Shown piece after piece: positions 20,292-59,477 of a stretch of 64,000 nucleotides of DNA. Source of the stretch: Planctomycetota bacterium. GTDB lineage: Bacteria > Planctomycetota > B15-G4. The notes beneath the pieces are model-generated. The model ran no database searches. It was given only the letters and a program-made list of their open reading frames with translations, and was not told the DNA's origin. The stretch covers positions 301,370-365,369 of the forward strand of contig JAJDEP010000003.1 in assembly GCA_029259715.1 (NCBI GenBank), written 5' to 3'. Both the position numbers and the translations under genes were made by a program. Position 1 is the first letter of the stretch, and the number at the start of each line of letters is the position of its first letter.

Positions 20292-20409
20292 TGCCTCTCC
20301 GGGCCCTCTCGCCCGACGCGAAGGCCCGCCCGGCGTGATGGCCGACCGCAAGTCACGCCCAAGCGTCGACGATGAAGGGGATCAAGCCCCCTTCCCGGAA
20401 CTCGAAGCG

Positions 20410-21904: not shown

Positions 21905-23170
21905 ATGAACACGCTGCACGTCCCCGAACGTCGTGCCCGCTCGGCAGGCTTCACCCTGGTGGAGCTGCTGATCGCGAGCGCTTTGAGCGCCATCGTGCTC
22001 ATGGCCTCGGCCCATGCCGCGGGCATGTTCGCGACGCAGCTGCAGGACCTCACGGATGAAGGCGACAGCGAACTCGAGCGGGCCCTGGCCACCATCATCC
22101 ATGACGTGCGCTACGCCTGGTGGGCCGAGGTCACCGGCACCTCGGCCTCCATCGTGGCCGGGCCGGCGGGCAAGGAAACCACCTACGCCTACGACGACGA
22201 TCGCCTGACCGTCACCGACACCCGCGGCAACACCGACGTGCTGGCCTACGGCCTCGAGTCGGCCACCTTCTCGGCCGCCACGATGACGCGCTACCGCGAG
22301 GACGACCCCGTCTCCGCCAGCGAGGCGTTCTGGTGGAGCAGCGCCCCTGTCACGGCCGCCGTGCCTTTGGTGCTGATGGAGGGCGACACGCTCGGCCTGG
22401 GCTTCACGGTGCGCTCCGCCTCCCCCTGGGACTCCTCGGTGGAGGGCATCGAGGAGCAGTTGCTGAGCGCCACCCTCGATCAACTCGAGCTGCCCCTCGC
22501 GACCCTCGTTTCCAACGGCGCCACGCTGCAGATCGCCTTGCACCGGGCGCGCTCTCCGGGAGACGGTCGGCCCGAGGGCCCGCCCCTTTCGACCAAGCTG
22601 ATCCGGCTCAACACCCTGCCGCTGAAGGCCTTCACCGTCTTTGATGTCGACAAGCTCCTGACCTTGCCCACTCCGCTCCTGCCACCTCTCGGCAGGGCCC
22701 CCTGGTGGGTGGACGACCATGATCTGGTCTTCAAGACCACGGCCCCGACCACCGACGTGCCGCTCTCGCTGTGGGGTGCGGCCCGGGCCATCGAGCCCGG
22801 CGTCAGCTACACGCTGCTGCTGAGCGTGATCGGCGATGGCGCGGTGGTCCTGCGCGTGCACCCGCTACTCACGTCCGTCGGCTCGGGACTGAGCCTCATG
22901 TCAGACCTCGACAAGACCGGCATCCCGGACATGGAACACGACGCTTACACGCCCATCGCCTACGCCGTGCCGTGCCGCCTGCGCGGCGTGGTGACGGCCA
23001 CCAGCACCCTGGCGACCGAGGTGGTCACCCGCATCGACGTGATGCTGCGCGACACCTCGGGACTCACCGCCCGCGGTTCGGCCAACCTGTCCGGGCAGAC
23101 GCTGGCCATGCACCCGTGGCTCGGCGCCATCCCGGGCGAGGCGCCCGTGCTCACGGGGGCCGCGCCGTGA
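21905..23170 (+). CDS. large pilin-like protein, family A copy 1 (prepilin-type N-terminal cleavage/methylation domain)
   Basis: 421 aa. N-terminal RSAG|FTLVELLIASALSAIVL (G-1, E+5). Family motifs DVRYAWW and C-terminal HPWLGAIPGE are shared with the genes at 24823 and 29073. Confidence 0.8.
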   Translation: MNTLHVPERRARSAGFTLVELLIASALSAIVLMASAHAAGMFATQLQDLTDEGDSELERALATIIHDVRYAWWAEVTGTSASIVAGPAGKETTYAYDDDRLTVTDTRGNTDVLAYGLESATFSAATMTRYREDDPVSASEAFWWSSAPVTAAVPLVLMEGDTLGLGFTVRSASPWDSSVEGIEEQLLSATLDQLELPLATLVSNGATLQIALHRARSPGDGRPEGPPLSTKLIRLNTLPLKAFTVFDVDKLLTLPTPLLPPLGRAPWWVDDHDLVFKTTAPTTDVPLSLWGAARAIEPGVSYTLLLSVIGDGAVVLRVHPLLTSVGSGLSLMSDLDKTGIPDMEHDAYTPIAYAVPCRLRGVVTATSTLATEVVTRIDVMLRDTSGLTARGSANLSGQTLAMHPWLGAIPGEAPVLTGAAP

Positions 23171-23673
23171 AGCCGAAGACGTCCCGTCGCCCCCGTTCGG
23201 TCCGCTGCGCCGGCCTGACCCTGCTCGAGGTCATGGGCGCCACCATCGTGCTGAGCATGGCCGTGGTGTCGAGTTCGTACGTGATGTCGCAGGCGACGAC
23301 GACCCGCGCCAGCATGCACGCGGGTCCCATCGACGCGGCGCTGCTGGCGGCCCACATCCATGAGGCGGCCCTGGGCCTCTCGAGGGAACCCAGCGGGCTG
23401 GGCATCGCCACCTCGGGTTCCGACGTGCTGGCCCTCGACACCCTCGACGGCGCCGTGTTCTCGCCGCCCATCGACGCCCAGCTGGAAGTGATCCCCGCTT
23501 CCACGGGCTGGGCCCAGCACGTCGACCTGCGCATCGTCGACCCCGCCGATCCCGAAAACTCGCGCGCCCTCACCACGGCCGACTCCATGGGCGAAGAGGT
23601 CATCGAGCTGGTGGTGACGATCAGCGAGTTCGGCCGTTCCAAGGGTGAATTCACGTGGTGGCTCACGCCGTGA
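23167..23673 (+). CDS. minor pseudopilin-like protein, family B copy 1 (GspI/J-sized)
   Basis: 168 aa. GTG start overlaps the upstream stop (GTGA). CAG|LTLLEVMGATIVL prepilin motif. LDGAVFSPPIDA and C-terminal TWWLTP are shared with the genes at 26971 and 61083. Confidence 0.7.
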   Translation: MKPKTSRRPRSVRCAGLTLLEVMGATIVLSMAVVSSSYVMSQATTTRASMHAGPIDAALLAAHIHEAALGLSREPSGLGIATSGSDVLALDTLDGAVFSPPIDAQLEVIPASTGWAQHVDLRIVDPADPENSRALTTADSMGEEVIELVVTISEFGRSKGEFTWWLTP

Positions 23674-24698
23674 CGACCCTCGACCCGCGACGCACCGGCG
23701 CCGGTCCCCAGGGCGGCTACGTGCTGCTCACCGTGCTGCTGCTGTCGATCCTGATGGTGTCCGGAACGGTGGGCTACGCCCGCTACGCGCTGCAGGCCGA
23801 GCAGCACGACGTGGCCGCGCTCGGCAATCACTCGGCCCGCGAGGCGGCCCTGTCCGGGCTCGCCTATGCCCGCCAGGCCCTGGCCTCGGGAACCCTCGCG
23901 TCGTCCACCACCGTGCAGGTCGGCGGCGCCGCCGTCGACATCCTGCTCACCGACGCCGGCAACGATCGGCACCTGCTCACCATCGAGTCCCTGGACGAAG
24001 GCCTCGGCGCCCGCATCGTAGCCGAGGCCGCTGTGATCCCCTCGGCCAGCGGCGACATGCCCCGCATCGATCCCGTAGCGGCCGCCGCGATCCTGGCGGA
24101 CAGTGCCACCCAGAAGGAGGAGGGCACCAAGGAGGACAAGACCTTCGAGGGCCACCTGGTCGTCAAGAAGGGCAAGACGCTGAACTTGATCAACGTCGTG
24201 GTCAAGGGCTCGATCTTCTCCGAGACGGCGTTGCTCGCGGCCATCGACGGCTTGCCCTACGACGACATCGAGTACACCGGCGACGAGACCGCGCTCGTGA
24301 TCGAGGGCGGCCTGCGCGTGGACGGGGTCGGCGCCATGGCGGGTGTCTCCATCTTCATGCCGGAGGGTTCCGTCTCCGCCGATGACGAGACCCAGATCGA
24401 ATTGAACGGCGCGGTGGTGTCCAACACGCTGCTGCTCGACGGTCACGGCGTCATCGCCGGCCCGCTGCTGACGCAGAACACACCAACTGTGAACTCGCTC
24501 ATCGATCGGCCGGGCGAAGGCCGGGCGCCGCGCCCCTGGCCCACCGCGTTGACTCACGCCTCGTATGAGATCGATTGGATCGCGTTTCCCGATCAGGACG
24601 TGACCGCCGCAGAGAAGGCCGCCCTGGCGGGCTTCCTGTTCCCGGCCAAGCTCGGAGCGGCCGTTGTGGCGCAATCGGTCTCGCCGCCCAACCCGTGA
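23670..24698 (+). CDS. GspK/PilX-like minor pseudopilin, family C copy 1
   Basis: About 342 aa. GTG 23670 overlaps the upstream stop (GTGA). The N-terminal hydrophobic segment QGG|YVLLTVLLLSILMVSG has no Glu at +5 (a GspK hallmark). Shared motif DRPGEGRAPRPWPT. Paralogous to the genes at 27465 and 60021. Confidence 0.7.
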   Translation: MTTLDPRRTGAGPQGGYVLLTVLLLSILMVSGTVGYARYALQAEQHDVAALGNHSAREAALSGLAYARQALASGTLASSTTVQVGGAAVDILLTDAGNDRHLLTIESLDEGLGARIVAEAAVIPSASGDMPRIDPVAAAAILADSATQKEEGTKEDKTFEGHLVVKKGKTLNLINVVVKGSIFSETALLAAIDGLPYDDIEYTGDETALVIEGGLRVDGVGAMAGVSIFMPEGSVSADDETQIELNGAVVSNTLLLDGHGVIAGPLLTQNTPTVNSLIDRPGEGRAPRPWPTALTHASYEIDWIAFPDQDVTAAEKAALAGFLFPAKLGAAVVAQSVSPPNP

Positions 24699-24822
24699 CA
24701 CCCTTGCGCCCTGCGACGGGGCGCCGGGAACCCCTCAACTCGTCACCAGCGCGCCTCCGATAGGGAAAGTACGGGTCCGCGCCCGCTCGCCGGCCCGTGA
24801 TCCCCTACCGGAATCCCCCGGC

Positions 24823-26160
24823 ATGCCGTCCCCGCACCGTCGACTCCGCCCCGCGGCGGCCTTCACCCTGGTCGAACTGCTCGTCGCCAGCACCCTGGGC
24901 GCGCTGCTCATGGTCGCGGCCGCCACCCTGGCCGGCAGCTTCAGCCAGAGCGTCGCGACCCTCATGGAAGACGTGGCGCCCGAGCACGAGACCGCCCTGG
25001 CGCGCATGGCCCGCGACGTGCGCTACGCGTGGTGGACCGACGTGCCGTCCGCCGATCGACTCATCGTGGACGACCACCAGAGCCGGCGGACCGTGTACCG
25101 CATCGACGGCACCGAAATCATCGCGCGCCATCCGGACGGCGAGGAGGGTGTGCTGGCCGAAGGCGTGGGCTCGCTGTCCTTCCAGGCGATCACGATGCAA
25201 CGCCTGCGCGAAGGGCCCCAGGTCACAGAGAACACAATCATCGCCGCGACCTCGCCCGTCTACGCCGACATGAAGGCCGTCGTCATCGGAGACGGCGCCA
25301 GCCAGGCGGTGGGCTTCGTGATCGACAGCGTGGTCGGCGAACGCTCCGTGACCTCGGTGGACGAGCAGGTGGTCGGCGCGACCATCGAGTCCATCGCGCT
25401 GCCCCTGGCTCAGGGCACCGGCAAGGGCACGGTCACCTTCGAGATCTATCCCGCGTGGGCGCCCGGCAACGGACGGCCCCGGCCCGGCGCGAACTCACTG
25501 GGTTCCGTCACCTTCCCGCTCTCCGCCTTCTCGCCGGCCGTCCAAGACCACCCCCATCACCCACACCACGTGACGGACATCCTGAAGGACCAGTACGGCG
25601 TCAAGCTCGAGGTGCCCGATCCCCGGGGTGGTCTGTTCGGATTGCTGCGCCTGAACGTCGACACCCAGGCAGACCTGACCGAAGTCCTCGACAAGTTCGA
25701 CCTGCTCGAGATCGAATCCGGCTTCGACGTCTCCACGACGGACCGCTATGAGGAGACGGGATTCTTCCTGCCCTCGGTGTCCACGGTGAACCTCGACACC
25801 GCCGGAGCCTTTCCGACCCTCGTGCCGGGCGTCGCCTACACCCTCGTCATGAGCATCAGCGGCAACGGCTCGCTGGCGGTGGTCACCACGGACAAGGTCT
25901 CCGCCTCCCAGAGCACCGTGGCGGCGCGCGAAAACGCCACCAAGAGTCTCGTGGCCGAGGACTATCAGTTCGCCGTGACGCTTTCCGGCACGCGCACGAT
26001 CACGAGCACCATCGCCAGCGACGAGGTCGCCCTGGTGCGCATGGACCTGCAGACCAGCGGCGGACAGCGTGCCTCCCGGGCCGCCGGCGTCTTCAGCCAG
26101 GTGGTGGCCGAGGATCCCTGGATGGGCGTGGTCGAAGGGGACCCCCCGCCCGAACCGTAG
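24823..26160 (+). CDS. large pilin-like protein, family A copy 2
   Basis: 445 aa. PAAA|FTLVELLVASTLGALLMV (Ala at -1, E+5). DVRYAWW. C-terminal DPWMGVVEGD. Confidence 0.8.
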   Translation: MPSPHRRLRPAAAFTLVELLVASTLGALLMVAAATLAGSFSQSVATLMEDVAPEHETALARMARDVRYAWWTDVPSADRLIVDDHQSRRTVYRIDGTEIIARHPDGEEGVLAEGVGSLSFQAITMQRLREGPQVTENTIIAATSPVYADMKAVVIGDGASQAVGFVIDSVVGERSVTSVDEQVVGATIESIALPLAQGTGKGTVTFEIYPAWAPGNGRPRPGANSLGSVTFPLSAFSPAVQDHPHHPHHVTDILKDQYGVKLEVPDPRGGLFGLLRLNVDTQADLTEVLDKFDLLEIESGFDVSTTDRYEETGFFLPSVSTVNLDTAGAFPTLVPGVAYTLVMSISGNGSLAVVTTDKVSASQSTVAARENATKSLVAEDYQFAVTLSGTRTITSTIASDEVALVRMDLQTSGGQRASRAAGVFSQVVAEDPWMGVVEGDPPPEP

Positions 26161-26306
26161 GCCCCGCGCCGCGGTCGGGACCACAGGCCGTTCCGGGCCC
26201 GCATGCGGCCGTCCTCGGGGGTCTCGGGGGGGATTGCGCCCTCATCGCCCCGCCCCCCGGTGTGCCCGTCTCGAAAGGGGGACGCGGCGTCTCAAGTCGC
26301 CTTCAA

Positions 26307-26321
26307 GGCGTGCCGAAAGCA
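26307..26321 (+). promoter_or_regulatory. candidate sigma-54 (-24/-12) promoter upstream of major pseudopilin gene
   Basis: aGGCgtgccgaaaGCAat, with GG and GC separated by 10 nt. The GCA lies 60 bp upstream of ATG 26382. Weak match to TGGCAC-N5-TTGCA. Confidence 0.25.
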
Positions 26322-26381
26322 ATCAGGTTGACCGGGCGGCTGTTCGCGCGGTGACGGAACACTTCCGGAGACATCTAGTCA

Positions 26382-26842
26382 TGTCGAAGCAAGATCGAAA
26401 GAACGCCGGCTTCACGCTGGTCGAACTGCTGATCGTCGTGATCATCCTCGGCATCCTCGCCGCGGTGGTCATTCCGCAGTTCAACACGGCGGCCGCCGAA
26501 TCCAAGGAAGCCGCGTTGGCTTCCAACCTCGCGACCATTCGTCAGGCCGTCGAGCTCTACAAGGTTCAGCACAACGACGCATTCCCCGGTTCGGGCATCG
26601 TCGACCAGCTGACGCTTTCCACGGATGTTGATGGTGCGACCACGGGCACCAAGTACGGCCCGTACATCCGCAACGCGTTCCCGAAGAACCCGATCGACGG
26701 TGACTCCACCGTGACGGCCGCAACCTCCATCTCGACTCCCAGCGGTACGTCAGTGGGTTGGGCTTACAACACCGTCAACGGCGAGTTCCGCGCGAACGTG
26801 GACGGTGCTGGCCCGAGCGGCGTGAACTACCACGACCTGTAG
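26382..26842 (+). CDS. GspG-like major pseudopilin / type IV pilin, copy 1
   Basis: 153 aa. MSKQDRKNAG|FTLVELLIVVIILGILAAVVIPQF is a canonical GspG N-terminus. C-terminal motif NGEFRANVDGAGPSGVNYHDL is shared with the genes at 30262 and 30913. Confidence 0.85.
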
Positions 26843-26878
26843 TCTCCAGCCTCTCTGAGCTCCAGCTCCGGAAGCGGG

Positions 26879-26909
26879 CCCGGCGAGAGGGCATACCCCT
26901 CTCGCCGGG
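26879..26909 (+). terminator. perfect 13-bp stem / 5-nt loop hairpin immediately after major pseudopilin gene (terminator/attenuator candidate)
   Basis: CCCGGCGAGAGGG-catac-CCCTCTCGCCGGG, 37 bp after the stop of the 26382..26842 gene. No U-tract (common in high-GC genomes). Confidence 0.45.
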
Positions 26910-26970
26910 TCCACGCCGGCTTCGGGAGAGCGAGAGTGCACCATCCGGGCGCACCCACGGAGCGCCGATC

Positions 26971-27468
26971 ATGACCGCGAGCACGACCAGACACGCCGGC
27001 TTCACGTTCATCGAACTGATGCTGGCCACATTGTTCCTCGGGACCATGCTGGTCGCGGCTTCGTCGGCCATCGGTTCGGCCGCGGTGACGAAGGAACACG
27101 GGCGGACGGTGCCCCAGACCGCTCTCGACTTCGCCCAGGAGATCCACGCGGCCTCCATGCTGCTGCCGCGCGCTCCCGGCGCCGGCGTCGCGGCCACTTC
27201 GGGAGCCGGCGTCTCGATCCTCGAGGACCTGGACGGCGCCGTGTTCTCGCCCCCCATCGACGCGGGCCGGCAGGCCTTTGCCGGCTCGACACGCTGGACC
27301 CAGCGCGTCGCGCTCGAACGGGTGCTCGTGGCGGATCCCTCCACGACGGCCCCGGTGCCCGATGAAGAAGTCGGGGAGGAGGAAGCCCCATGGATCTACG
27401 TCCTGATCGTCACCATGGAACTCGACGGCGCCCCCCAGGGCAGCTACAGCTGGTGGATCCGGCCGTGA
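26971..27468 (+). CDS. minor pseudopilin-like protein, family B copy 2
   Basis: 165 aa. RHAG|FTFIELMLATLFLG. LDGAVFSPPIDA. C-terminal SWWIRP. Confidence 0.75.
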   Translation: MTASTTRHAGFTFIELMLATLFLGTMLVAASSAIGSAAVTKEHGRTVPQTALDFAQEIHAASMLLPRAPGAGVAATSGAGVSILEDLDGAVFSPPIDAGRQAFAGSTRWTQRVALERVLVADPSTTAPVPDEEVGEEEAPWIYVLIVTMELDGAPQGSYSWWIRP

Positions 27469-28496
27469 AGCGCCCGCGGGAGGGTCGACGGCCGTTGCCC
27501 GCCGGAGAGCACGGCTACGTGATGCTGGCGGTGATCCTCATCAGCGCCCTCATCGTGAGCCTCACGCTGGGCTACTCGCGCCACGCCCTCATCGCCGTGG
27601 ACGCCACCGAAGCCGATCAAGCCCATCGGCTCGACCTCGACGCCGTCGGTTCGGGCCTGGCCCTCGCCGCGCGCAACATGCAGATCAGCGGCGCCCTGCC
27701 GGCCTCGCACCAGCTGCCGGACGGCAGCAACGTCAGCATCGACGTGAGCGCTGCGAGTGCCACCACGAAGACCATCAGCGTGACGACCGGCACGGCCGCG
27801 GCCCCGCGGGTCGTCAACGCCGTGGCCGAGGTCTACCCCGACCTGAGCGAATCGCCGCCGTTCCTCACCTTCAACGCCAAGCGTTCGGTGTGGGAGTTTC
27901 CCGGCCTGATCGACATCTCCTCCGACACGACCTACGAGGATGCCGACCTGACGGGCATCCTGCTGATCCGCAAGGGCAGGAAGCTCACGCTCGAGAACTG
28001 CATCGTGCGCGGATCCATCGTGAGCGAAAACGCTCTCTCGGACGAAGTCTGGGAAGACGACGAGACCACCGAGTTGGAGATCAAGGGCGGACTGATCATC
28101 GAGCCCGGCAGCACGCTGGCCGGCTGCGCGATCATCGCGCCGGACTGCGCGATCACGGCCGTCAAGGCAGCCGGCAACCGCGACCCGGCGCTGCAATTCC
28201 ACGGCGTCGTCGTGGCCGATTCGTTCGAACTCGAAGGCCACGCGGTCTTCCACGCGCAACTGGTCACCACCCAGGACCCGATCTTCGTGGGCCCGGTGGA
28301 CCGACCCGGCGCCCACCGGAAGCCCCGGGCCTGGCCCACCAGCCTCGACATCAACGGCCAACGCATCGGGCGCCTGGTGTTCCCGTTCGAACAGCCTGAC
28401 CAGGCCGCCCGCAACGCCATCCAGGGGTTCGACTGGTCGGCACACCCCGCGCCTCAGCGCCAACAGGCTCAGGGCCAGCAAGTTCAAGGAGGCTAG
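27465..28496 (+). CDS. GspK/PilX-like minor pseudopilin, family C copy 2
   Basis: About 343 aa. GTG start overlaps the upstream stop (GTGA). EHG|YVMLAVILISALIVSLTLGY. DRPGAHRKPRAWPT. Confidence 0.7.
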   Translation: MKRPREGRRPLPAGEHGYVMLAVILISALIVSLTLGYSRHALIAVDATEADQAHRLDLDAVGSGLALAARNMQISGALPASHQLPDGSNVSIDVSAASATTKTISVTTGTAAAPRVVNAVAEVYPDLSESPPFLTFNAKRSVWEFPGLIDISSDTTYEDADLTGILLIRKGRKLTLENCIVRGSIVSENALSDEVWEDDETTELEIKGGLIIEPGSTLAGCAIIAPDCAITAVKAAGNRDPALQFHGVVVADSFELEGHAVFHAQLVTTQDPIFVGPVDRPGAHRKPRAWPTSLDINGQRIGRLVFPFEQPDQAARNAIQGFDWSAHPAPQRQQAQGQQVQGG

Positions 28497-28498
28497 AC

Positions 28499-28975
28499 GT
28501 GCGACACCGGGACGGCGGGTTCACATTGATCGAGTTGCTGGTGGTGGTCGCCATCATCGGCATGCTCGGGCTCGCGGCCGTGCCGGCGGCGGGGTCGGGC
28601 GCCGCCCAAAACCTCGACATCGTCGAGCTCCAGATGCGCGACGCCTTCAACCGCGCCATGGCCCTCGCGCGCAGCGGCCGGCAGACCCACGCCGTGGTCT
28701 TCGACCTGACCACCGATCGCTTCGCCGTGGTGGACAAGGACGGCAACGCCGTCATCGATCCCCTGACCAAGCGTGGCTACGTGGTGGCCTTCGACATCCC
28801 TGGCCAGCCTGCGGGCATCGACGTCGTCTCCGCCACCTTCGGGAGCAACGGGACGGCCGCCATCTTCGATGGCCAGGGGCTCCCGCTCGACAGCGGTTCG
28901 GTGACTCTGGACTGTCGCGGCTCGGTGCGGACGTTCGCCCTCAACAAGGCCACGGGCAAGCTGACGGCTCTCTAG
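28499..28975 (+). CDS. GspH-like minor pseudopilin, copy 1
   Basis: 158 aa. GTG start. RDGG|FTLIELLVVVAIIGMLGLAAVP. Two beta-sheet-rich GspH-like halves. Confidence 0.75.
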   Translation: MRHRDGGFTLIELLVVVAIIGMLGLAAVPAAGSGAAQNLDIVELQMRDAFNRAMALARSGRQTHAVVFDLTTDRFAVVDKDGNAVIDPLTKRGYVVAFDIPGQPAGIDVVSATFGSNGTAAIFDGQGLPLDSGSVTLDCRGSVRTFALNKATGKLTAL

Positions 28976-29072
28976 GGGCCGCGGGCACTCGAGGGCCGCG
29001 GGCGCGAGGATTCAAGTCGCCCCCCGGGGGGGCCGATGCCGGAACACTTCTTCCTCCCGCCCGACACACGCC

Positions 29073-30245
29073 ATGATGACGCACAACGATCCTCTCCCCT
29101 CCCGCCCGTCTTCCCGCCGCGCCGCCGCAGGCTTCACCCTCGCCGAGGTCCTGCTGGCCAGCATACTGGGCGCCATGCTGCTCACGGCGCTCACCTTCAG
29201 CACCATGGGCTTCGCCGACGTGCTCACCGACCTCGAAGCCAAGGCCGGCGTCACGAAGGAACTCGACCCGGTGCTGCGCTCCGTGACGCGGGATATCCGC
29301 GAGGCCCACTGGGCCGAGATCGTCGGCTCGTCGCGCATCAAGCTCGCCGACCACACCGGCGCCCTGACCGAGTACTACTGGGACGACCAGGACAAGTTGC
29401 TCCGCGTCCTGCGTCCGAACGGCGATGACGGCCCGGTCTTCGACGCGGCCGAAGCCGCCACCTTCACCGTCCAGTGGCTCGACCGCCATCGCGAGGGTTC
29501 GCCCGTCAACTGGGATGGCACCTGGTACGCCGCCTCGCTGCCCAGCAGCTTCGACATGGCCGTCGAGATCCCCAGCGGTGCTGAACTCGCCATGGGCTTC
29601 ATCGCCCCGGTCGACGACAGCCAGGCCATCGGCGCCGGCAGCAGCGGGGAGCGCTTCCTCGACGTGGGCCTGGGCGTCATGCGCATGCCGGTGGCCTGGG
29701 TCCCCGGATCCGGTGCCCACAACATGACGGTCACCATCTACGAGAGCTGGGCGCCCGGCTCGGCCAAGCCCCTCGACACGTCCCTCGGCTCCGTCACAGT
29801 CGCCGGCTCCGACCTGCCCGCCGCCGTGTGGGACGCTTCCGAGTCCGAGTGGTTGGAGCCCGACATGGTCTCCATCGGCCTGTCGACGCTCAGCCTGACC
29901 CTCGAGCCCGGCGCCAGCTACACGGCCGTCGTGTCCGCCGGCGGTGACGCCCAGCTCGTCGTCACGGCCCACCCGTTCATGAAGACCTATGCCCACGACG
30001 ACGTCGCCATCAAGCCGTTGAGTGGCGCCTTCGTCGACCAGCCCCTGATCGTGCCGCTGGAGATGTCGGGCAACAGCCAGATGTCCTCCACCAGCGTGAT
30101 CCCCGTCATCGAGCTGATCAGCATCAGCGTGACCCCCCTGAACCGGGCCAGCCAGACCCGCTCGGCCGCCCTGCTGAGCCAGGCCGTCTCGTCCGATCCC
30201 TGGCTGGGCGTCGTGCCCGGCGAGATCCTGGTCTCGACTCCCTGA
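29073..30245 (+). CDS. large pilin-like protein, family A copy 3
   Basis: 390 aa. RAAAG|FTLAEVLLASILGAMLL. REAHWAEI (DVRYAWW variant). C-terminal DPWLGVVPGE. Confidence 0.8.
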   Translation: MMTHNDPLPSRPSSRRAAAGFTLAEVLLASILGAMLLTALTFSTMGFADVLTDLEAKAGVTKELDPVLRSVTRDIREAHWAEIVGSSRIKLADHTGALTEYYWDDQDKLLRVLRPNGDDGPVFDAAEAATFTVQWLDRHREGSPVNWDGTWYAASLPSSFDMAVEIPSGAELAMGFIAPVDDSQAIGAGSSGERFLDVGLGVMRMPVAWVPGSGAHNMTVTIYESWAPGSAKPLDTSLGSVTVAGSDLPAAVWDASESEWLEPDMVSIGLSTLSLTLEPGASYTAVVSAGGDAQLVVTAHPFMKTYAHDDVAIKPLSGAFVDQPLIVPLEMSGNSQMSSTSVIPVIELISISVTPLNRASQTRSAALLSQAVSSDPWLGVVPGEILVSTP

Positions 30246-30261
30246 CCGCGCTCACGTCGCC

Positions 30262-30786
30262 ATGACCAGGATGCCGATGAAGTTCAAGCAAACGTCCCCC
30301 GAGCCCACGCCCGTGCCCGTGCCCACCACGCCAAACCGATCGGGATTCACGCTGGTCGAGTTGCTGATCGTCGTGCTGATCCTCGGCATCCTGGCCGCCG
30401 TGGTGATCCCGCGCTTCAGCACGGTCTCGGCGGAAGCTCGCGAGTCCGCCGTCTACAACGACGTCCAGGCCCTGCGCAGCGCCATCGCGCTCTATCGGGT
30501 CCAGCACCTCGAGATCTACCCCGGCGTCTCGGGCTGGGACCAGTTCGTGACGCAACTCACGACCCAGACCGACGCCGCGGGTGCCTCGGGCACCAAGTAC
30601 GGGCCCTACGTAAGGCCGCCCTTCCCGACCAACGCCGTGAGCTCGCTCAACACGGGCAAGAACACGGTCACCATGCCCGGGTCGGCTGACGGCGGCACCG
30701 GCTGGATCTACAGCCCGACGAACGGCGAGCTGCGCATCAACACCGAGGGAGCGGGCCCGAGTGGCTCCGACTACTTCGACCTCTGA
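30262..30786 (+). CDS. GspG-like major pseudopilin, copy 2 (unusually long Pro-rich leader)
   Basis: 174 aa if ATG 30262 (alternative starts 30271 or 30277). Leader ...SPEPTPVPVPTTPNRSG|FTLVELLIVVLILGILAAVVIPRF. C-terminal NGELRINTEGAGPSGSDYFDL. Confidence 0.8.
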   Translation: MTRMPMKFKQTSPEPTPVPVPTTPNRSGFTLVELLIVVLILGILAAVVIPRFSTVSAEARESAVYNDVQALRSAIALYRVQHLEIYPGVSGWDQFVTQLTTQTDAAGASGTKYGPYVRPPFPTNAVSSLNTGKNTVTMPGSADGGTGWIYSPTNGELRINTEGAGPSGSDYFDL

Positions 30787-30912
30787 TCCGCCGGTTTCGC
30801 CGCAAATCCGAGGGGCAGGGCTCGGCCAGAAACCCGCTCAAGACCGGGCGACGCTCCCGCCGATGAGGCTTTCAGTCGTTCCTGCCCTGAGATTTGCTGG
30901 AGAACCCGACCG

Positions 30913-31389
30913 ATGACCACCCGCACTCGCCGTGGCTTCACCATCGTCGAGCTGCTGATCGTGATCGCGATCCTCGCATTGCTCGCGGCGGTGGCCGTCC
31001 CGCAGTTCTCCGATTCCGGCAACGAAGGCAAGACCGCCGCCATGGTCTCGAGCCTGTCCGTGATCCGCACGGCAGTCGACAGCTACTGGTCCCAACACGA
31101 CGCCTTCCCCGGCCAGACCGACGGCGAGCAGTTCGCGCGGCAACTGACCCTCACCACCAACAAGGCGGGCCAGGTCGGCGCGGGCATCGGCTACGGCTAC
31201 GGCCCCTACCTGCGCCGCGGCGTGCTGCCCTCCAATCCGTTCGTCGAACGCGACGACGTGCTCGTCGTGCACGGCATGCCGACCAAGGCCACGGGCACAG
31301 AGGCCTGGATCTACGACGCGTCCACCGGTGAGGTGCGGGCCAATGTCGACGGCGCCACGCCCGACGGCATCAAGCTGTTCGACCTCTGA
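30913..31389 (+). CDS. GspG-like major pseudopilin, copy 3
   Basis: 158 aa. MTTRTRRG|FTIVELLIVIAILALLAAVAVPQF. C-terminal TGEVRANVDGATPDGIKLFDL. Confidence 0.85.
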   Translation: MTTRTRRGFTIVELLIVIAILALLAAVAVPQFSDSGNEGKTAAMVSSLSVIRTAVDSYWSQHDAFPGQTDGEQFARQLTLTTNKAGQVGAGIGYGYGPYLRRGVLPSNPFVERDDVLVVHGMPTKATGTEAWIYDASTGEVRANVDGATPDGIKLFDL

Positions 31390-44831: not shown

Positions 44832-44838
44832 GGTGCCT

Positions 44839-51956: not shown

Positions 51957-53083
51957 CTACTTCATGACCTGGCTGATGGCGAACATCGGCATGATCAGAC
52001 TCGAGACGATCAGCGCGACGACGGCGCCCATCAGGATGGTCATGGTCGGTTCGATGGTCGCGACGAACGCCTTGATGGCCGACTCGACCTTCTTCTCGTG
52101 GTGATGGCTGATCTTGCCCAGCACCTCGGGCAGCGTTCCCGAGCGCTCACCGAGGGACAGCATGGCGGTCTCGGCCGGCGGGACCAGCGGGTTGTCGACC
52201 AGACTCGCCGACAGGTCGCCGCCATTCTGGACGTCCTCGCGCGAACGCGACCACAGCTTGCGGTACTCGTTGTTGCCCGAGACCGCCGACGCGATCTGCA
52301 GCGCCTCGAGGACGTTCAGGCCGGCGTTCAGCATCACGCCGAGCACGTGGAAGGCCCGCGACAGGGCGACCGCCCGGATCAGACCGCCGAAGGCAGGCAC
52401 CTTGAGCACCACGGGGTCGCAGATCTCGCGCCCCTTCTGCGAGCGCAACGTCAGGAAAAGCGTCGCGAACGTGCCGAGCGCCGCGGGCGCCAGCCAGGCA
52501 CCGTGCTCGATCATGAAGTCCGAGAGGGCCATGAAGAATTTGGTCGGGCCGGGCAGCTTGCTCGGGTCCTTCTCGAACAGCACGGCGAACTTCGGGAACA
52601 CGTTGACGAGCAGGAAGATCACCACGCCGACGGCGAGGACGGCCATGAAGGCCGGGTAGGCCATCGCGCCCTTCACCTTCTTGCGGGTGCTGATGTCGCG
52701 CTCCATGAACTCGGCAACCTTGCCGAGCATGTTGCCGAGGTCGCCGGTCATCTCGCCGGCGCGCACGAGCGCCAAGGCCACCGGAGAGAACGCCCAGCTG
52801 TGATAGGACATCGCCACCGAAAGGGGCTTGCCCTCCTCGACGTTGTGCCGGATGTTGCCAACGAATCGCGCCAGGTGCGGCGTGCCCGACTGCTTCTCGA
52901 GCACTTCGAGCGCGGCCGAGAGGTTCAGGCCCGTGTCGAACATGATCGAGAGCTGCGTCACGACCTCGAGGATCTGCTGCGGCGGCACCTGCATCTTCTT
53001 GACCGCCAGGTCCATGCGCTGCTTCAGGTCTGCAAAGGCGGACGCCCGGTGCTCCGGCGCAACGGCTTCTTCGGCTGCCATGT

Positions 53084-53087
<4 letters not shown>
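51957..53087 (-). CDS. type II secretion / type IV pilus inner-membrane platform protein (GspF/PilC family)
   Basis: 376 aa. Two GspF repeats (ALSYPAF/AMAYPAFMAV..., LxxAGxxxGxL motifs VRAGEMTGDLGNML and SLGERSGTLPEVL). ATGA overlap with the ATPase gene. Confidence 0.85.
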
Positions 53088-54792
<1,705 letters not shown>

Positions 54793-54796
<4 letters not shown>

Positions 54797-55197
54797 GCCT
54801 TGTCCTCGCTCGAGGCCGGATCGGTGTCGCCGTCCGCGGCCGGGTCCGTCGGAGCCAGCGCTTCGACCGCGTCCTTGGCGGCACCCGGCTTGGACCCCTT
54901 CGCCGTGGGCATCGGCGCCTGCTCCGCGATCTCGAGGCGCTCCTGGAGACCCGTGATGGAAAGCGCCGTCATCAGCACCTCGGACGGCTCGATGATCAGG
55001 AACGACAGCCCGCGCGTCTTGGCGAGCTCGTTGAACTCGAGCAGCCCTTCGAGGCTCTGGCTGTCGAACTCGACGACCCGCGAGGCATCCATCTGGATGG
55101 ACGTCACACCGCGACTGATTTGTTCGGAGATGGTGGCCGCGAGGTCGGTGATGACACCGTGGGCCAGACTTCTCCCTCCTTCGATGCGTTGAATCAT
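54793..55197 (-). CDS. STAS-domain protein (anti-sigma-factor-antagonist fold) embedded in the secretion operon
   Basis: 134 aa. The approx. 100-aa core (VVEFDSQSLEGLLEFNELAKTRGLSFLIIEPSEVLMTALSITGLQERLEIAE) is STAS-like, with a C-terminal acidic tail. 4-bp overlap with the ATPase start. Confidence 0.65.
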
Positions 55198-55211
55198 GGT
55201 TCCCCCGAAGT

Positions 55212-56840
55212 TCAGCGGCCGCCGTTCATGGCGTCACGTGCGTCGATGGCCGCGTCGATCTCCATCGACAGCTCGATCAGTCCTTCGTGGAGCGGATCGA
55301 GGATCATGGCGCGGTCGGCCAGCAGGCGGGCCTCGCCGGCCTGCCCCGCCGCCAGGGCGGTGACCGCATCGCGCATCAGGTTGGTGGCGTAGACCGTGCG
55401 CGAGAGCGGACCGAAGGTCTCGCGGAACTCGGCCTGGTCGCGCTCGTGTTCATCGACGATCTCGGCACCGGTCTGGCCGTTGCTGTTGGAGTGCATGCGG
55501 CCGTGCTCGAGGATGTGCGGAGTGAGCACGATCACGATCTCGCGCCGCAGGACCGCGGTCTTCTCGGACTTGAACAGGTACTCGAGGCCGGGCAGGTAAC
55601 CGAGGATCGGGACCCGCGACGTCGTGTTCACGTCGGACGTCTCGATCAGACCGCCGATGACCACCGTCTCGCCGTCGCGGACCATGACGTTGGTGGTGAC
55701 CTCCGCCGTGGTCTCCGAGGGCAGGCCGGTGTTGACGTCGACCTTGCCATCGCTGCGCTCGGGGTGGATCTCGAGGCGCACGAAACCGTCATCGCCGATG
55801 AAGGGCCGGAAGCGCAGCTGGGTGCCGGTCTCCAGGAACTCGACCGTCTGCTGGCTGATGCCGTCGCTGACCGTCGTGCCACCGAAGTAGCCCAGGCGAC
55901 CGCCGATGATGATCTCGGCGCGCTGCTTGTTGAGCGCCAGCACCTTGGTGTTGGCCAGGACGTTGGTGTCGACGATGCTCTGCAGCGCCTCGATGAAGAT
56001 CGAGACCTTGCTGCCGATGTAGCCGATGCGCAGGCCGTCACTGGTCGGGTCGGTGAAGCCGGACTGCGATCCCGTGTAGGTCGTGCTCGGCGCCAGGCTG
56101 GTCCCTGAGAAGACGTCCTTGGTGGCGTCCAAGCTCGAGAAGTTCGAGAACTGGGCGTTGGCCAGCAGGTTGAAGTCGACGCCCCACTTGTTGGTCTCGT
56201 CGAGGGTGACCTCGAGGATGGTGGCTTCGACCAGCACCTGCCGCGGCATGACGTCGAAGTCGGCGACCAGGCGGATCATGGTGTCGACCACGTCCTGGTT
56301 GTCGATGATCAGCAGGGTCTCCTGCCCCGTCGAGTTGTCGCCGCCGGCTTCGTCACCGCCACTGGGGATGCCGACGCCGGACTGCTCGGAGATGACGATG
56401 CGGCCGTTGGCCGACAGCATCGGCAACATGAAGGCTTCGAGCTCTCGGGCCGTGCGGTAGTTCGGCCGGAAGATGTGCTCGGTGAGCGGACGCTCGAGCA
56501 GGTCGAGGTCGTCGATGCTGAAGATCATGTAGACCTTCCCATCGAACGTCCAACCGTAGCCCAGCGGGGTCAGGCACCAGTCGAGGGCTTCCTCGAGCGT
56601 GGCGTCGTAGAAGTTCGCCGTCACGGACGAGTTCGTATCGACGCCGGCGACGATATTGACCCGCTCCGAGACGGAGAGCAGTTCAAGCACGTTGCTGAGC
56701 GGCTCGTTCCGGACATTGAGGGTGATCCCTTCGTCACCATCCTGATCGTCGAAGGCGACGGCCGGGACAGCGGTGGAAAGAACCAGCAGTGCGATAAGGC
56801 AAGAGCGAAGCATGGGCTTGGGTCCGGCGGAGGCGGTCAA
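55212..56840 (-). CDS. secretin (GspD/PilQ family) outer-membrane channel
   Basis: 542 aa. Signal peptide, N0/N1-like domains, secretin core (VLANTKVLALNKQRAEIIIGGRLGYFGG...VPILGYLPGLEYLFKSEKTAVLRREIVIVLTPHIL). About 90-aa C-terminal helical extension. Confidence 0.9.
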   Translation of the reverse strand: MTASAGPKPMLRSCLIALLVLSTAVPAVAFDDQDGDEGITLNVRNEPLSNVLELLSVSERVNIVAGVDTNSSVTANFYDATLEEALDWCLTPLGYGWTFDGKVYMIFSIDDLDLLERPLTEHIFRPNYRTARELEAFMLPMLSANGRIVISEQSGVGIPSGGDEAGGDNSTGQETLLIIDNQDVVDTMIRLVADFDVMPRQVLVEATILEVTLDETNKWGVDFNLLANAQFSNFSSLDATKDVFSGTSLAPSTTYTGSQSGFTDPTSDGLRIGYIGSKVSIFIEALQSIVDTNVLANTKVLALNKQRAEIIIGGRLGYFGGTTVSDGISQQTVEFLETGTQLRFRPFIGDDGFVRLEIHPERSDGKVDVNTGLPSETTAEVTTNVMVRDGETVVIGGLIETSDVNTTSRVPILGYLPGLEYLFKSEKTAVLRREIVIVLTPHILEHGRMHSNSNGQTGAEIVDEHERDQAEFRETFGPLSRTVYATNLMRDAVTALAAGQAGEARLLADRAMILDPLHEGLIELSMEIDAAIDARDAMNGGR

Positions 56841-57580
56841 TGGCTATCGACTTCGGCCGTGGGGCCGCTTGAGAGGGTGAACGGATCGGCGAACAGAGCG
56901 TCGGCCTGTAGCGCATCCGGAATCATGGTGTCGGTGTCATGCACGCCGTCCGGGAGGATGTCCCCGACCACGGGCGGTGAGTCGATGCGGCCATACAGGA
57001 CCGGCATCTCTACGGTGTGGATGTCCTGGCTGGGCGAGCGCAGCACGATGGTGCGCTCACGGATCTCCTCCAGGTTCCAGCCCTGGATCGAGTCCCCCAC
57101 GAAGTGCATGCGGCCATCGATGACGGCCACCGGGAGACGCTGGGAAGCGAGCGTGGCCGAGAGGTTGATCGACGGCGGTTGCAGCTTGACGTCGATCTCC
57201 TGCACCTCCGTCGGCGTGCTCCAGAACGCAGAGAACGGGTCGCTCTCGAGCTCGGCTCCGTCTTCGGTCCCTCCTTCGGAGTCGTCGTCGGCTCCGAATT
57301 CGGCGAGGGGGCGACTGAGGACCGGGTTGGCCTCGATGACGACGGGGACGAGGTCCACGCCGCTGCTCTCGGTGGCATCCTCGGTCATGGCCTGGGCGAC
57401 CCCGCTCTTGGGCTGGGCCACGATGGGCGTCTCGTCGCTGCTGAACTGCGAGGAGATCACGAGACCCAGGACGGCGGTGAGGCTGCCCAGCACGATCAGC
57501 TGACGGCGCTGCTTCTTGCCAGCCTTCACCCTCAGCTGTTCGCTGATCGAACCCGGCTTGTCCTTCTCGGCAGTCTTCAA
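56837..57580 (-). CDS. PilP/GspC-like secretin-interacting protein (single TM)
   Basis: About 248 aa. Start uncertain: TTG 57580 overlaps the upstream stop; ATG 57673 would overlap by 97 bp. TM is LIVLGSLTAVLGLVISS, followed by an acidic linker. C-terminal block PVAVIDGRMHFVGDSIQGWNLEEIRERTIVLR resembles the PilP/GspC HR domain. Confidence 0.55.
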   Translation of the reverse strand: MKTAEKDKPGSISEQLRVKAGKKQRRQLIVLGSLTAVLGLVISSQFSSDETPIVAQPKSGVAQAMTEDATESSGVDLVPVVIEANPVLSRPLAEFGADDDSEGGTEDGAELESDPFSAFWSTPTEVQEIDVKLQPPSINLSATLASQRLPVAVIDGRMHFVGDSIQGWNLEEIRERTIVLRSPSQDIHTVEMPVLYGRIDSPPVVGDILPDGVHDTDTMIPDALQADALFADPFTLSSGPTAEVDSH

Positions 57581-58101
57581 GACTCGGCCTCCAACATCAC
57601 GGCGATCTGCAAGTTGATTCGGCGTTGCTCGGCGCCCTGCTCGACCTTGAGCTGGAGCAAGCGCGTGACCCACGGCATGCCTTCCAGCGCCGTGAGGAAC
57701 TCGAGCAAGGACGAGGCGTTGCCTTCCACGACCAGATCGATCGCGCGGAAGGGGAAGCGCCCGCTCCGGTTCGTGGAGCCGCTGTCCATGCGCACACTGA
57801 CCAGGCCGGTGTCGATGACGTGCTCGAGCACGAGCGTCTCGACGCCTTGCAGGGCTTCGGGCGTGTCCGGGCAGAGCCGCTGCGCACGATTCGCGCTCTG
57901 CTCCCGGACCTCGAGGACCTGCTGGTGCAGCTCCTGCACCTGGAGCTGCACAGCCTCGTCGGCGACGCGCTGGCTGTTGAGCAGGTGCACCTCATCCTCG
58001 AGGGAGGTCACGCTCCCCTGGATCGGATAGAGGACGCCGGACGAGGCGATGATCAGACCCACGCCGATGAGGGCGATGGTGGTTGAGGCCTTGGACTTCA
58101 T
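57577..58101 (-). CDS. PilO/GspM-like inner-membrane assembly protein
   Basis: 174 aa. N-terminal TM, then a coiled coil (LEDEVHLLNSQRVADEAVQLQVQELHQQVLE), then a ferredoxin-like C-domain. ATGA overlap with the upstream gene. Confidence 0.6.
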   Translation of the reverse strand: MKSKASTTIALIGVGLIIASSGVLYPIQGSVTSLEDEVHLLNSQRVADEAVQLQVQELHQQVLEVREQSANRAQRLCPDTPEALQGVETLVLEHVIDTGLVSVRMDSGSTNRSGRFPFRAIDLVVEGNASSLLEFLTALEGMPWVTRLLQLKVEQGAEQRRINLQIAVMLEAES

Positions 58102-59477
58102 CAGCGGGTCTCCGCGCGGGCGTAGATGCGGAAGCGTTCGCCCTCGGTGCCCACCCCGATGAGGACGCGCTCACTCGCCTCGACCTGCACGTTCGAGAAC
58201 GCCTGCGTGACCAGCAGGTCGTCGGCGAACTTGCGCACGGCCAGGTTGTCGGCAGCGATGCCGTGGATGCGGACATCGAGGTTGCGCGCGACCGGCTCGT
58301 TCGGGTCGACCACGGCATCCTTGTCGAGGATCGCCTTCTCCTCGTCCGCGATGTGGATCGACTCGATCATGATCGAGCCGGCGGCATGGTTGGCGATGAT
58401 CGAGAACAGCGTCGACATGCGGTGGCCGGGATAGGCGAGGTTGATCACCTTCTCGTTGGCCTTCTCCTTGTCGAGCTCAGCCTGCAGGTTCGCCAGCTCG
58501 ACCTTCGCGACGGCGAGGATGGTGAGCTGGTTCTGGAGGTCGGACTTCTTCGTCTCGAGGTCGCCGGCCTTGCGCGACCCGGTCACGCCGGCGAGGACCA
58601 CGATGAGCGCCGCGGCGGCCGTCATGGTGACGCCGTACTTGCGCACCTTGCGCTTCTGCCGCATGACCCGTTCTTCGGGCGGCGTGAAGTCGACGAGGGC
58701 CCGACCGTCCGTGGCCAGGCCCAGCCCGATGCAGTCGTCGCAGGCCGCCGGGGCGACATCGACGCGGATGCCGATCGACTCGGCATAGACCTTGCGGTCG
58801 TCCTCGTCGACGCTGACGGTCTCGAGCACGTCGAGATCGCTGCCGCCGATGGCGCCGAGCGCCCGCGAGATGGTCGCCTTGAGTTCGGGTCCCGAGACAG
58901 GGGACGGGACGATGCGCGCGAAGAGCAACTTCTCGTCGCGGCCGGCCAGGATCATGTCCCCGTCACCGGAGCGGATCAGCCGTACGTGCAGGCCTTCACC
59001 GGGCCACGCCCGCCAGGCCGACAGCGTGCCGCATTCGACCGCCTCGACGTCGAGCTGCATCTCGCGGCAGACGGCGACGACATCCGTGAGGCGCTGCTTG
59101 TCGATCGCGGCCATGACCACGAGTGAAGGTCCGGGCGTGGCCCGGGTCCCTGATACTGCCGACTCCGCAGAGAACCCCATCGTCGCCTTCTCGGCATTGA
59201 AGACGGGGTCGCCCTTGAGGCGGTCAGTGCAGATGGCGCGGGCCGACTTGGACCCGGGCGGAACCGTGAGTGACTCGATCAGGACCGACTTGCCTTCGAG
59301 GCCGACGCGCACCTGCTTGCCCACGAAGGGAGCGGAGGAGAGCAGCTGCCGGACGCTCTTCTTGAAGTTGTCGTCGATCGAGACCGCCGAGGCGACGACC
59401 TTGCCGTCCACCATCTGCACGGCACGGAGCTGTCCGTCCGCCACTACGAGTCCGATGTTTCCGGATTTCCTCTTCAA
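58101..59477 (-). CDS. PilM-PilN fusion (GspL-like) inner-membrane assembly protein
   Basis: 458 aa. N-terminal approx. 270-aa actin-like PilM/GspL cytoplasmic domain, TM (VTMTAAAALIVVLAGV), coiled coil, and PilN-like periplasmic domain. Confidence 0.65.
   Translation of the reverse strand: MKRKSGNIGLVVADGQLRAVQMVDGKVVASAVSIDDNFKKSVRQLLSSAPFVGKQVRVGLEGKSVLIESLTVPPGSKSARAICTDRLKGDPVFNAEKATMGFSAESAVSGTRATPGPSLVVMAAIDKQRLTDVVAVCREMQLDVEAVECGTLSAWRAWPGEGLHVRLIRSGDGDMILAGRDEKLLFARIVPSPVSGPELKATISRALGAIGGSDLDVLETVSVDEDDRKVYAESIGIRVDVAPAACDDCIGLGLATDGRALVDFTPPEERVMRQKRKVRKYGVTMTAAAALIVVLAGVTGSRKAGDLETKKSDLQNQLTILAVAKVELANLQAELDKEKANEKVINLAYPGHRMSTLFSIIANHAAGSIMIESIHIADEEKAILDKDAVVDPNEPVARNLDVRIHGIAADNLAVRKFADDLLVTQAFSNVQVEASERVLIGVGTEGERFRIYARAETR

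Follow-up and report, generated by a model that had tools for sequence, protein, structure and literature searches.

Fourteen pilin-like proteins and one visible filament machine at a planctomycetal locus: a possible core system with two accessory tip sets

Why would a bacterium carry three copies of most of its minor-pilin genes, and three major-subunit genes, when only one filament machine is in sight? The question is raised by a 64,000-nt stretch of DNA from an uncultured Planctomycetota bacterium of the Phycisphaerales (GTDB lineage Bacteria; Planctomycetota; B15-G4; GenBank assembly GCA_029259715.1, contig JAJDEP010000003.1, positions 301,370 to 365,369 of the forward strand). We call the whole stretch the window and count positions from its first letter. 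At 21905–31389, eleven consecutive intact open reading frames (ORFs), all on the plus strand, begin with prepilin-type N-termini or with a variant lacking glutamate at position +5 (Glu5), as an earlier note on this DNA had proposed. Three more pilin-like genes head an operon at 51.9–61.6 kb on the minus strand, the sole machine operon visible in the window. The complement is 14 pilin-like proteins in five families: 3 A, 3 B, 3 C, 3 G and 2 H. We put a probability of about 0.5 on the reading that they form the full repertoire of one filament machine of the type II secretion system (T2SS) or type IVa pilus (T4aP) kind, with a core and two accessory tip sets.

Window genes were called by their codon-position GC pattern (window GC about 70%). 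The cluster runs A1-B1-C1, A2, G1, B2-C2-H1, A3-G2, G3, and gene spacing marks A1-B1-C1 (−4 and −19 nt), B2-C2-H1 (−4 and +2) and A3-G2 (+16) as tightly packed units. The cluster is not made of tandem A-B-C repeats, although the earlier note saw it as three modules; the note's count of three A, three B, three C and three major subunits in the window is right, with only two H genes. Identity between paralogs is 29–33% for A, 36–40% for B, 28–32% for C and 47–49% for G.

A six-frame regular-expression scan of the whole window found exactly 14 pilin-type N-termini, each opening an ORF of the expected length. Chance matches to the motif were considered and rejected, because there were just 14 and every one stood at an ORF start. 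Families A, B, G and H carry class III signal peptides (a short basic leader, Gly at −1, Phe or another hydrophobic residue at +1, Glu at +5 and a following stretch of some 20 hydrophobic residues), the exceptions being Ala at −1 in A2 and the sequence G|ASFAE in B3. Every cluster gene thus has a pilin-type N-terminus, as claimed earlier, but the leader glycine is not universal. We also saw the Ala at −1 (AAA|FTLVE) of A2 in one member of its orthogroup (L002 7707-9008). Pfam N_methyl (PF07963) scored above its cutoff in seven of the 14 (A1, A2, G1, G2, G3, H1, H2) and below it in A3, B1 and B2; C1–3 and B3 gave no N_methyl match.

The same leaders recur in relatives. Family hidden Markov models (HMMs) made from the window genes were mapped onto related loci, numbered with L here, from Planctomycetota/Phycisphaerales metagenome-assembled genomes (MAGs) and metagenome contigs. 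PF07963 matched 32 of 33 A, 13 of 16 B and 15 of 15 H family members at E ≤ 1. G|FTLxE is near-universal across A relatives, the few exceptions including two members that have Ala at −1 and L007, which reads GATLIE, and most B members read G|(L/F)T(L/F)xE, B3 and one other diverging. The C family reads G|(Y/F/W)V(L/M)L with T, A, S or G at +5 in 15 of 16 members, the sixteenth having Gln at +1; none has Glu5.

The large A proteins are GspJ-like modular minor pilins: A1 (21905..23170, +, 421 aa; GspJ/PilW-like, accessory set 1), A2 (24823..26160, +, 445 aa; N_methyl 23.1 bits) and A3 (29073..30245, +, 390 aa; the proposed partner of B3-C3-H2). Modelled with AlphaFold2 (AF2), A shows a GspJ-type pilin fold, and its fold matches are T2SS GspJ proteins. 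By sequence, no TIGR01711 or Pfam T2SSJ/PilW match occurred among 33 A members, the best curated match of A1 was PRK10557 (26 bits, cutoff 120), and the A profile found N-terminal-helix matches alone in the PDB. Short distant relatives of the A pilin domain carry N_methyl alone and offer no bridge to the GspJ/PilW models.

Beyond the pilin domain, A carries a C-terminal beta-sandwich of about 240–250 residues that resembles adhesin and carbohydrate-binding module (CBM) folds. This distal module is the most divergent and indel-rich part of the protein (22–30% identity with 59–74 gap columns, against 36–47% identity in helix alpha1). Some A homologs reach 520–606 aa (P0126, P0132, P0135, P0138 and others) and split the profile match at about position 209, which points to a putative hot-spot for insertions where the pilin domain joins the beta-sandwich. 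Because the beta-sandwich is so variable, and because some homologs hold large insertions, its divergence fits a diversified ligand-binding surface. In A2, an insert rich in histidine (HPHHPHH) falls within the variable portion of this beta-sandwich. The C-terminus of A is conserved as DPWLGVVPGE, with low pLDDT in the model. Two A signatures proposed earlier need narrowing: DVRYAWW occurs in A1 and A2 but A3 reads DIREAHW, and the terminal DPW(L/M)GVV(P/E)G becomes HPWLGAIPG in A1.

Family B comprises small minor pilins: B1 (23167..23673, +, 168 aa; leader G|LTLLE, overlapping the A1 stop by 4 nt), B2 (26971..27468, +, 165 aa; leader G|FTFIE, accessory set 2) and the machine-linked B3 (61083..61613, −, about 176 aa, start uncertain; family HMM 274.8 bits). 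In hhalign, the B profile matched the A pilin domain with 95.8% probability (E 8e-9, 104 columns). It also matched Thermus PilA2 (5g23) at E 3.8e-4, in a largely N-terminal alignment, and TIGR01707 matched B at E 0.092. PilA2 is a close GspI homolog (PMC6561018). We class B as GspI/PilV-like, a tentative and weakly supported assignment drawn from its sequence. The B family ends in a conserved WW(L/I/M)xP, the WW being invariant.

Family C comprises cap-type subunits without Glu5: C1 (23655..24698, +, 347 aa; N-terminus GYVLLTV, predicted beta-solenoid, 19-nt overlap with B1), C2 (27465..28496, +, 343 aa; 4-nt overlap with B2) and the machine-linked C3 (60021..61046, −, 341 aa; N-terminus GWVLMAT). 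The AF2 model of C2 combines a helix at the N-terminus with a small sheet and a beta-solenoid about 160 residues long, and shows no GspK alpha-domain; among known architectures it comes closest to Thermus ComZ and cyanobacterial PilX. A true GspK identity for C was rejected because that domain is absent from the model; the GspK model NF037980 gave C 12.6 bits (cutoff 130). C is GspK-like in N-terminus, size and position alone, and no sequence comparison tied it significantly to pilins. Calling C GspK-like, as the earlier note did, therefore survives for the missing Glu5, the size and the position but not for fold or profile. The broader pseudopilin kinship claimed for the three families holds for A, through its GspJ-like fold, and for B, through its homology to A, and is plausible for C. 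Near its end C carries the conserved signature DRPGxGRxPRxWP, and the conserved C-terminal signatures of A, B and C may be inter-subunit contacts. Pfam and NCBIfam hold no specific family for A, B or C, and under current annotation the generic prepilin N-terminal motif is the only family label that these genes receive.

The remaining families are G and H. G1 (26381..26842, +, 153 aa) is a GspG/PulG-like major subunit, G2 (30262..30786, +, 174 aa) a GspG-like major-type subunit that starts 16 nt after A3, and G3 (30913..31389, +, 158 aa) a further GspG-like subunit. GspG is their best specific curated model, at 53, 51.6 and 41.2 bits for G1, G2 and G3 (TIGR01710 cutoff 88.85), and PF08334 gave 12–14 bits (cutoff 21). 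The best full-length PDB alignment of the G profile was PulG (5wda; 52.7 bits, columns 11–109). G1 is the most conserved G orthogroup, up to 80% identical to its orthologs. The C-terminal NGE said to mark all three G proteins reads TGEVRAN in G3. For H1 (28499..28975, +, 158 aa; GspH/FimU-like, N_methyl 35 bits) and the machine-linked H2 (59521..60024, −, 167 aa), GspH is the best specific model: 9 of 15 family members matched Pfam GspH (PF12019) at E ≤ 0.1, the best at 1.5e-4. H2 covered 103 of the 108 profile positions at 19.7 bits (cutoff 21), and TIGR01708 gave H1 and H2 29 and 43 (42.6) bits against a cutoff of 80.

Behind B3-C3-H2, the minus-strand operon encodes an assembly machine. It begins with a PilM/PilN-like (GspL-like) inner-membrane assembly protein (58101..59477, 458 aa; weak PilN match, E 0.0099). 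A PilO/GspM-like protein follows (57577..58101, 174 aa; NCBIfam GspM 18 bits, E 0.0018), conserved as a 171–172-aa gene in relatives. Next comes a small T2SSB/PilP-like periplasmic component (56837..57673, start uncertain; weak T2SSB match, E 4e-4), 195–216 aa long and conserved in position in relatives. The secretin (55212..56840, 542 aa) scores 133 bits with Pfam Secretin and 34 with STN. After a STAS-domain ORF (54793..55233, start uncertain; 22.2 bits, cutoff 22.6) come the PilB/GspE-family extension ATPase with its N-terminal MshEN domain (53084..54796, 570 aa; T2SSE 462 bits, MshEN 69 bits) and the PilC/GspF platform (51957..53087, 376 aa; T2SSF 195 bits, two repeats). Among the window's machine genes we recognised no GspC and no clear GspL. 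A protein-database search with the PilM/N-like protein returned 67 homologs; those to which NCBI gives a name, three in number, come from Planctomycetota MAGs, and JGI labels some PilN. A single machine operon is visible in the window, in keeping with the one machine supposed earlier.

Two features of the operon may bear on its control. The STAS gene, anti-sigma-antagonist-like, lies between secretin and ATPase in relatives too, at 100–114 aa (L017 5938-6270, L018 14375-14677, L019 14242-14553, L020 14270-14614). A STAS protein is not known as a standard part of a T2SS or type IV pilus (T4P), and this one may regulate the ATPase as its partner. Within the N-terminal ~70 residues of the ATPase, KLSERLVRLGIVDEMILLRALAHQ appears to resemble the MshE cyclic di-GMP-binding motif, with R-to-K and G-to-S changes.

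Does this machine build a pilus on the cell surface or a T2SS pseudopilus in the periplasm? The affinities of G, H and A favour a T2SS; those of the ATPase favour PilB by a small margin, its best PDB match being Myxococcus xanthus PilB (3jc8, 472 bits; GspE 432 bits). A classical T2SS, with G as a short periplasmic pseudopilus working like a piston and A/B/C/H tips that select or push different exoproteins such as sulfatases and polysaccharide-degrading enzymes instead of binding extracellular ligands, is the strongest competitor to one machine with alternative tips, and we consider it possible though unlikely. It would account for the GspG and PulG matches of G, the GspH matches of H, the GspJ folds of A, the GspM model as sole match of the PilO-like protein, the lack of a PilT gene in the window, and the sulfatase (34259-35836, −) and the Ser/Thr kinase fused to a formylglycine-generating-enzyme (FGE)-sulfatase domain (7822-10620, +) nearby. 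It sits less well with the missing GspC and clear GspL and with an ATPase slightly closer to PilB over its full length. Three conserved major-type subunits with three tip sets would be unusual for a T2SS, which also counts against it. So do the beta-sandwich and beta-solenoid of the tip subunits, which resemble adhesin and CBM folds, as in the modular pilins of T4P (PMC8179133).

The relatives show how the locus is put together. The A family is rare: a word-indexed search returned 11 proteins, and an exhaustive profile search 98 clusters at E ≤ 1e-30 among 1.84 billion representatives. Every carrier recovered is an uncultured MAG or a metagenome contig. In the five relatives with both flanks visible, the pilin cluster lies between the genes for leucyl-tRNA synthetase (LeuRS) and for electron transfer flavoprotein-quinone oxidoreductase (ETF-QO)/MORN; others show one flank or none. 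Its minimal form is G-A-G (L013) or G-A-G-G (L015). Larger versions read A-B-C-G-H-A-G-G (L008), A-B-C-G-B-C-H-A-G-G (L003) and A-B-C-A-A-G-B-C-H-A-G (L002), and two have the window order, A-B-C-A-G-B-C-H-A-G-G (L009, L011). A second species, GCA_038212275.1 (L009 with L018), matches the window in its 3A/3B/3C/2H/3G complement. The number three that the earlier note stressed thus holds for these two genomes but is not fixed in the lineage, relatives having 1 to 4 A genes at the locus.

Outside the cluster, two arrangements recur. Three relatives (L006, L010, L016) have a compact stand-alone A-B-C-H operon amid housekeeping genes, and A-B-C-H therefore looks like a functional quartet. The machine operon was found in four relative contexts (L017–L020) in the order B-C-H, PilMN, 172-aa protein, 195–216-aa protein, secretin, STAS, ATPase and platform, starting with C-H on the truncated contig L017 and with B-C-H in the other three. 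Upstream of the operon, the three complete loci each have a divergent HEAT-repeat gene. In none of the four machine operons (L017–L020) did we detect an A gene.

Neighbour-joining trees of the five families across the related genomes resolved orthogroups specific to position: A1, A2 and A3; G1, G2 and G3; B1, B2 and machine-linked B; C1, C2 and machine-linked C; H1 and machine-linked H. The machine-linked B orthogroup includes L018–L020. In the stand-alone operons L010 and L016, A falls in the A2 clade, C and H are sister to set 2, and B goes with the set-1 clade. The A orthogroup found universally is A3, which occurs at every locus on the LeuRS/ETF-QO side even where the locus has no B or C. 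Because the orthogroups keep their positions across genomes, the paralog duplications predate the divergence of these species, with the copies maintained since. Intact ORFs at 28–49% identity, together with this phylogeny, refute the alternative, named in the earlier note, of recent pseudogenised duplicates.

A promoter-like motif marks some of the units. From aligned regions upstream of G1 in nine genomes we derived TCAAGT-N16-CGA, generalised to T[CT]AAGT-N16-CGA. The window holds exactly three copies, before G1 (26292..26316, +), before A3 (29012..29036, +) and before B3 and the machine operon (61688..61712, −); none precedes A1, A2, B2, G2 or G3. The G1 copy is conserved in 9 of 9 genomes at −89 to −102, the A3 copy recurs before A3 orthologs in 10 loci, and the B3 copy before machine-linked B in L018, L019 and L020. 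The generalised motif matched 28 times in 736 kb, both strands counted, against 1.04 expected (maximum 3 in 50 shuffles). Twenty-six of these copies lie just upstream of pilin units: G1 (9 of 9), A3 (10), machine-linked B (4 of 4), A1 (2) and a stand-alone A-B-C-H operon (1). We infer that the motif is a promoter, and its half-sites and spacing loosely resemble those of extracytoplasmic function (ECF) sigma promoters. An ECF sigma factor gene with an adjacent zf-HC2 anti-sigma gene (43989-45537, −) and a second ECF-like ORF (7073-8242, −) are candidate readers.

Directly after the G1 stop stands a 16-bp perfect GC-rich hairpin (26876..26912, +; minimum free energy z −4.75, 0 of 200 shuffles as stable), terminator- or attenuator-like. 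A comparable hairpin follows G1 in 9 of 9 genomes and does not consistently follow G2 or G3. The conserved hairpin suggests that G1 is the major subunit and strongly expressed, and that read-through into B2-C2-H1 is attenuated. The motif and the G1 hairpin offer concrete entry points for studies of regulation.

Together with synteny, these signals suggest a core system of G1, A3-G2, B3-C3-H2 and the machine, with two accessory sets beside it. The pairing of A3 with the distant B3-C3-H2, already suspected in the earlier note, gains support on three counts: no A was detected in relatives' machine operons, A3 is the universal A orthogroup, and in the window the motif stands before G1, A3 and B3 only.

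The same evidence bears on a doubtful alternative, in which all 14 pilin-like proteins co-assemble in one heteromeric tip or filament and the paralogs are structurally subfunctionalised. The eleven cluster genes do share a strand and are separated by short gaps or overlap, a consensus scan for sigma-70 promoters and intrinsic terminators gave no useful match on the plus strand, and across genomes A, B/C and H genes differ in number from one another, all of which speaks for a single composite. But the promoter-like motif marks some units alone, the conserved hairpin intervenes between G1 and B2, complete quartets occur as independent operons, and the smallest genomes manage with G-A-G(-G) at this locus. 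Known priming complexes, moreover, hold one copy of each minor-pilin type (PMC7541494). That the accessory sets instead belong to another type IV filament machine, encoded beyond the window, is improbable: the window is about 8% of a 796,649-bp contig and stand-alone A-B-C-H operons far from machine genes make linkage uninformative, but the PilM/N-like search gave a single exact match (P0016) from the source contig and relatives yielded one type of machine operon, both weak points because the search was not genome-complete.

We return to one machine with a core and two accessory tip sets. The machine at 51.9–59.5 kb would polymerise GspG-like subunits, chiefly G1. A minor-pilin quartet equivalent to GspH-I-J-K or FimU-PilV-PilW-PilX would prime polymerisation and stay at the tip, with H linking it to the filament. 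A would take the J position with its GspJ/PilW-like pilin domain and variable beta-sandwich, and B the I position as a GspI/PilV-like subunit. C would take the K/X position as tip cap, a role suggested by the missing Glu5 and the bulky beta-solenoid. The accessory sets, A1-B1-C1 and A2 with B2-C2-H1, would have been added to the ancestral core at the pilin locus, most likely giving the same machine alternative tips with differing ligands, probably glycans. We infer quartet assembly, the cap role of C, the alternative use of the sets and ligand binding; by analogy with known systems, alternative tips on one machine are plausible.

Several results pull against this reading. All five families score under the curated cutoffs of the GspG/H/I/J/K models, and the AF2 models were built on shallow alignments (12 and 6 sequences; pLDDT 77 and 73). 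C is the least secure member. It had no Pfam match, its profile matched nothing in the PDB at E ≤ 10, hhalign related it to the G and A families with a non-significant 1–4% probability, and the closest Foldseek match of the C2 model in the PDB, ComZ (6qvi; E 0.15, probability 0.10), was not significant either. The sets are uneven, with two H for three sets, no H in cis for set 1 and no A in cis for the machine-linked set. Strict one-to-one sets do not seem to be required, since L017 comes from the same sample as L003 and, if both belong to the same organism, that relative has 2 A genes against no fewer than 3 C genes. Because B2-C2-H1 follows closely on G1, it could simply be transcribed by read-through from the putative G1 promoter, and the window contains no prepilin peptidase, PilT or PilY1 gene.

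The surroundings of the locus are mixed. Between the pilin cluster and the machine operon lie genes unrelated to pilus assembly, including ETF-QO, trigger factor, ClpX, PurL/PurQ, a class II (D/K/N-type) aminoacyl-tRNA synthetase, the sulfatase and an ABC transporter. A horizontally acquired island was rejected: cluster GC (0.68–0.70) matches the flanks, and relatives keep the same LeuRS/ETF-QO neighbours. Directly upstream of A1, 20338-21753 (+) encodes a protein rich in NGxDGI-type repeats that probably has a signal peptide and matches no Pfam family; beta-helix-like in appearance, it could be a cargo or a partner. Homologs of this protein lie near the pilin locus in L011 and L013. A tRNA gene (20216-20288, +) sits between the repeat protein and LeuRS; an Rfam scan gave one tRNA as its sole match and no riboswitch. 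Further off are an FG-GAP repeat protein of 1008 aa (3845-6868, +) and an alginate-export-type porin (11815-13431, +), which with the kinase/FGE-sulfatase and sulfatase genes fit a polysaccharide-degrading lifestyle.

According to a proposal that we take as cited in PMC12078418, pili serve planctomycetes as 'fishing rods' with which to catch polysaccharides, and the CBM-like module of A makes this attractive, if speculative, here. We regard the full version as doubtful. PilB-driven, GspG-like filaments would bear interchangeable tips of A (CBM-like) and C, each capturing a different polysaccharide. A dedicated regulator or sigma factor would read TCAAGT-N16-CGA for the core, the accessory sets would be switched separately, and the tip repertoire would amount to a glycan-specificity code in Phycisphaerales. 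In any case the A module is a candidate for the hypothesis of polysaccharide capture by planctomycete pili as cited in that source.

How does the locus compare with known systems? From the same superphylum, Planctomycetes-Verrucomicrobia-Chlamydiae (PVC), come the Verru_Chthon cassettes, which like this locus repeat multi-gene cassettes with prepilin-type N-termini. Verru_Chthon cassette proteins A–D (TIGR02596–TIGR02600) form pilin-like four-gene cassettes of Verrucomicrobiota. H1 and H2 scored 24–27 bits against cassette protein D (cutoff 70), and A1, B1 and C1 had no match to the cassette models; membership was rejected on scores so far under the cutoff. Searching the literature turned up no publication on pilins of Phycisphaerae, nor any on the 'Verru_Chthon cassette'.

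ComZ of Thermus thermophilus, at about 550 aa (PDB chains about 500–520 residues), is larger than C and binds DNA; we saw no sign of competence at this locus. The ComZ-PilA2 tip of the competence pilus nevertheless offers a parallel (PMC6561018; 6qvi, 5g23), joining a pilin-like N-terminus to a beta-solenoid, as predicted for C, beside a small GspI-like pilin, as B would be. Grafting of another kind is known from the PilB and PilC modular pilins of Streptococcus sanguinis, whose vWA or lectin modules are expected at the tip and widen the ligand range (PMC8179133). A shares this design of pilin module plus grafted module; here no Pfam model matches the grafted modules. The T2SS GspG/GspH-I-J-K system (3ci0, 5wda) resembles ours in the best matches of G and H, the GspJ fold of A, a C that like GspK has no Glu5, and the combination of secretin, ATPase and platform. 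It differs in that our families score below its cutoffs, C has a beta-solenoid instead of an alpha-domain, A bears an extra module of about 240–250 residues, the I/J/K-type and G genes are triplicated, and the order is A(J)-B(I)-C(K)-H.

In cyanobacteria, two minor-pilin sets prime two distinct filaments, and PilX there, like ComZ, is described as a pilin-like N-terminus with a beta-solenoid (bioRxiv 10.64898/2026.02.12.705559). As with the cyanobacterial Com/EPS core sets, a quartet of FimT-PilW-PilV-PilX type occurs here in more than one copy per genome without PilY1, and the PilX-position subunit carries a beta-solenoid, predicted in our case and proposed in cyanobacteria as a tip plug replacing PilY1. 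Unlike that case, our locus belongs to another phylum with no detectable sequence relation, has three sets and three GspG-like subunits, and bears a large beta-sandwich on the PilW/GspJ-position subunit as well.

The likeness the earlier note drew was to M. xanthus, where three clusters of minor-pilin and PilY1 genes serve one T4aP machine, either cluster_1 or cluster_3 is enough by itself, and abundance varies between the sets (PMC7541494). Three paralogous tip or priming sets with apparently one machine do recur here, but the match is partial. Each M. xanthus set has FimU-PilV-PilW-PilX plus PilY1, with one major pilin overall; here there is no PilY1, H genes number two, set 1 lacks H, and there are three G. 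One set is split here, with B-C-H in the machine operon and A at the pilin locus, and the families fall below all curated models. Several tip or priming complexes on one machine are established in Myxococcus and recent in cyanobacteria, and our reading would extend them to Planctomycetota. What would be new is a GspG/GspH-like system, built from protein families specific to the lineage, with large grafted modules on both its J- and K-position subunits and a major subunit that is triplicated as well.

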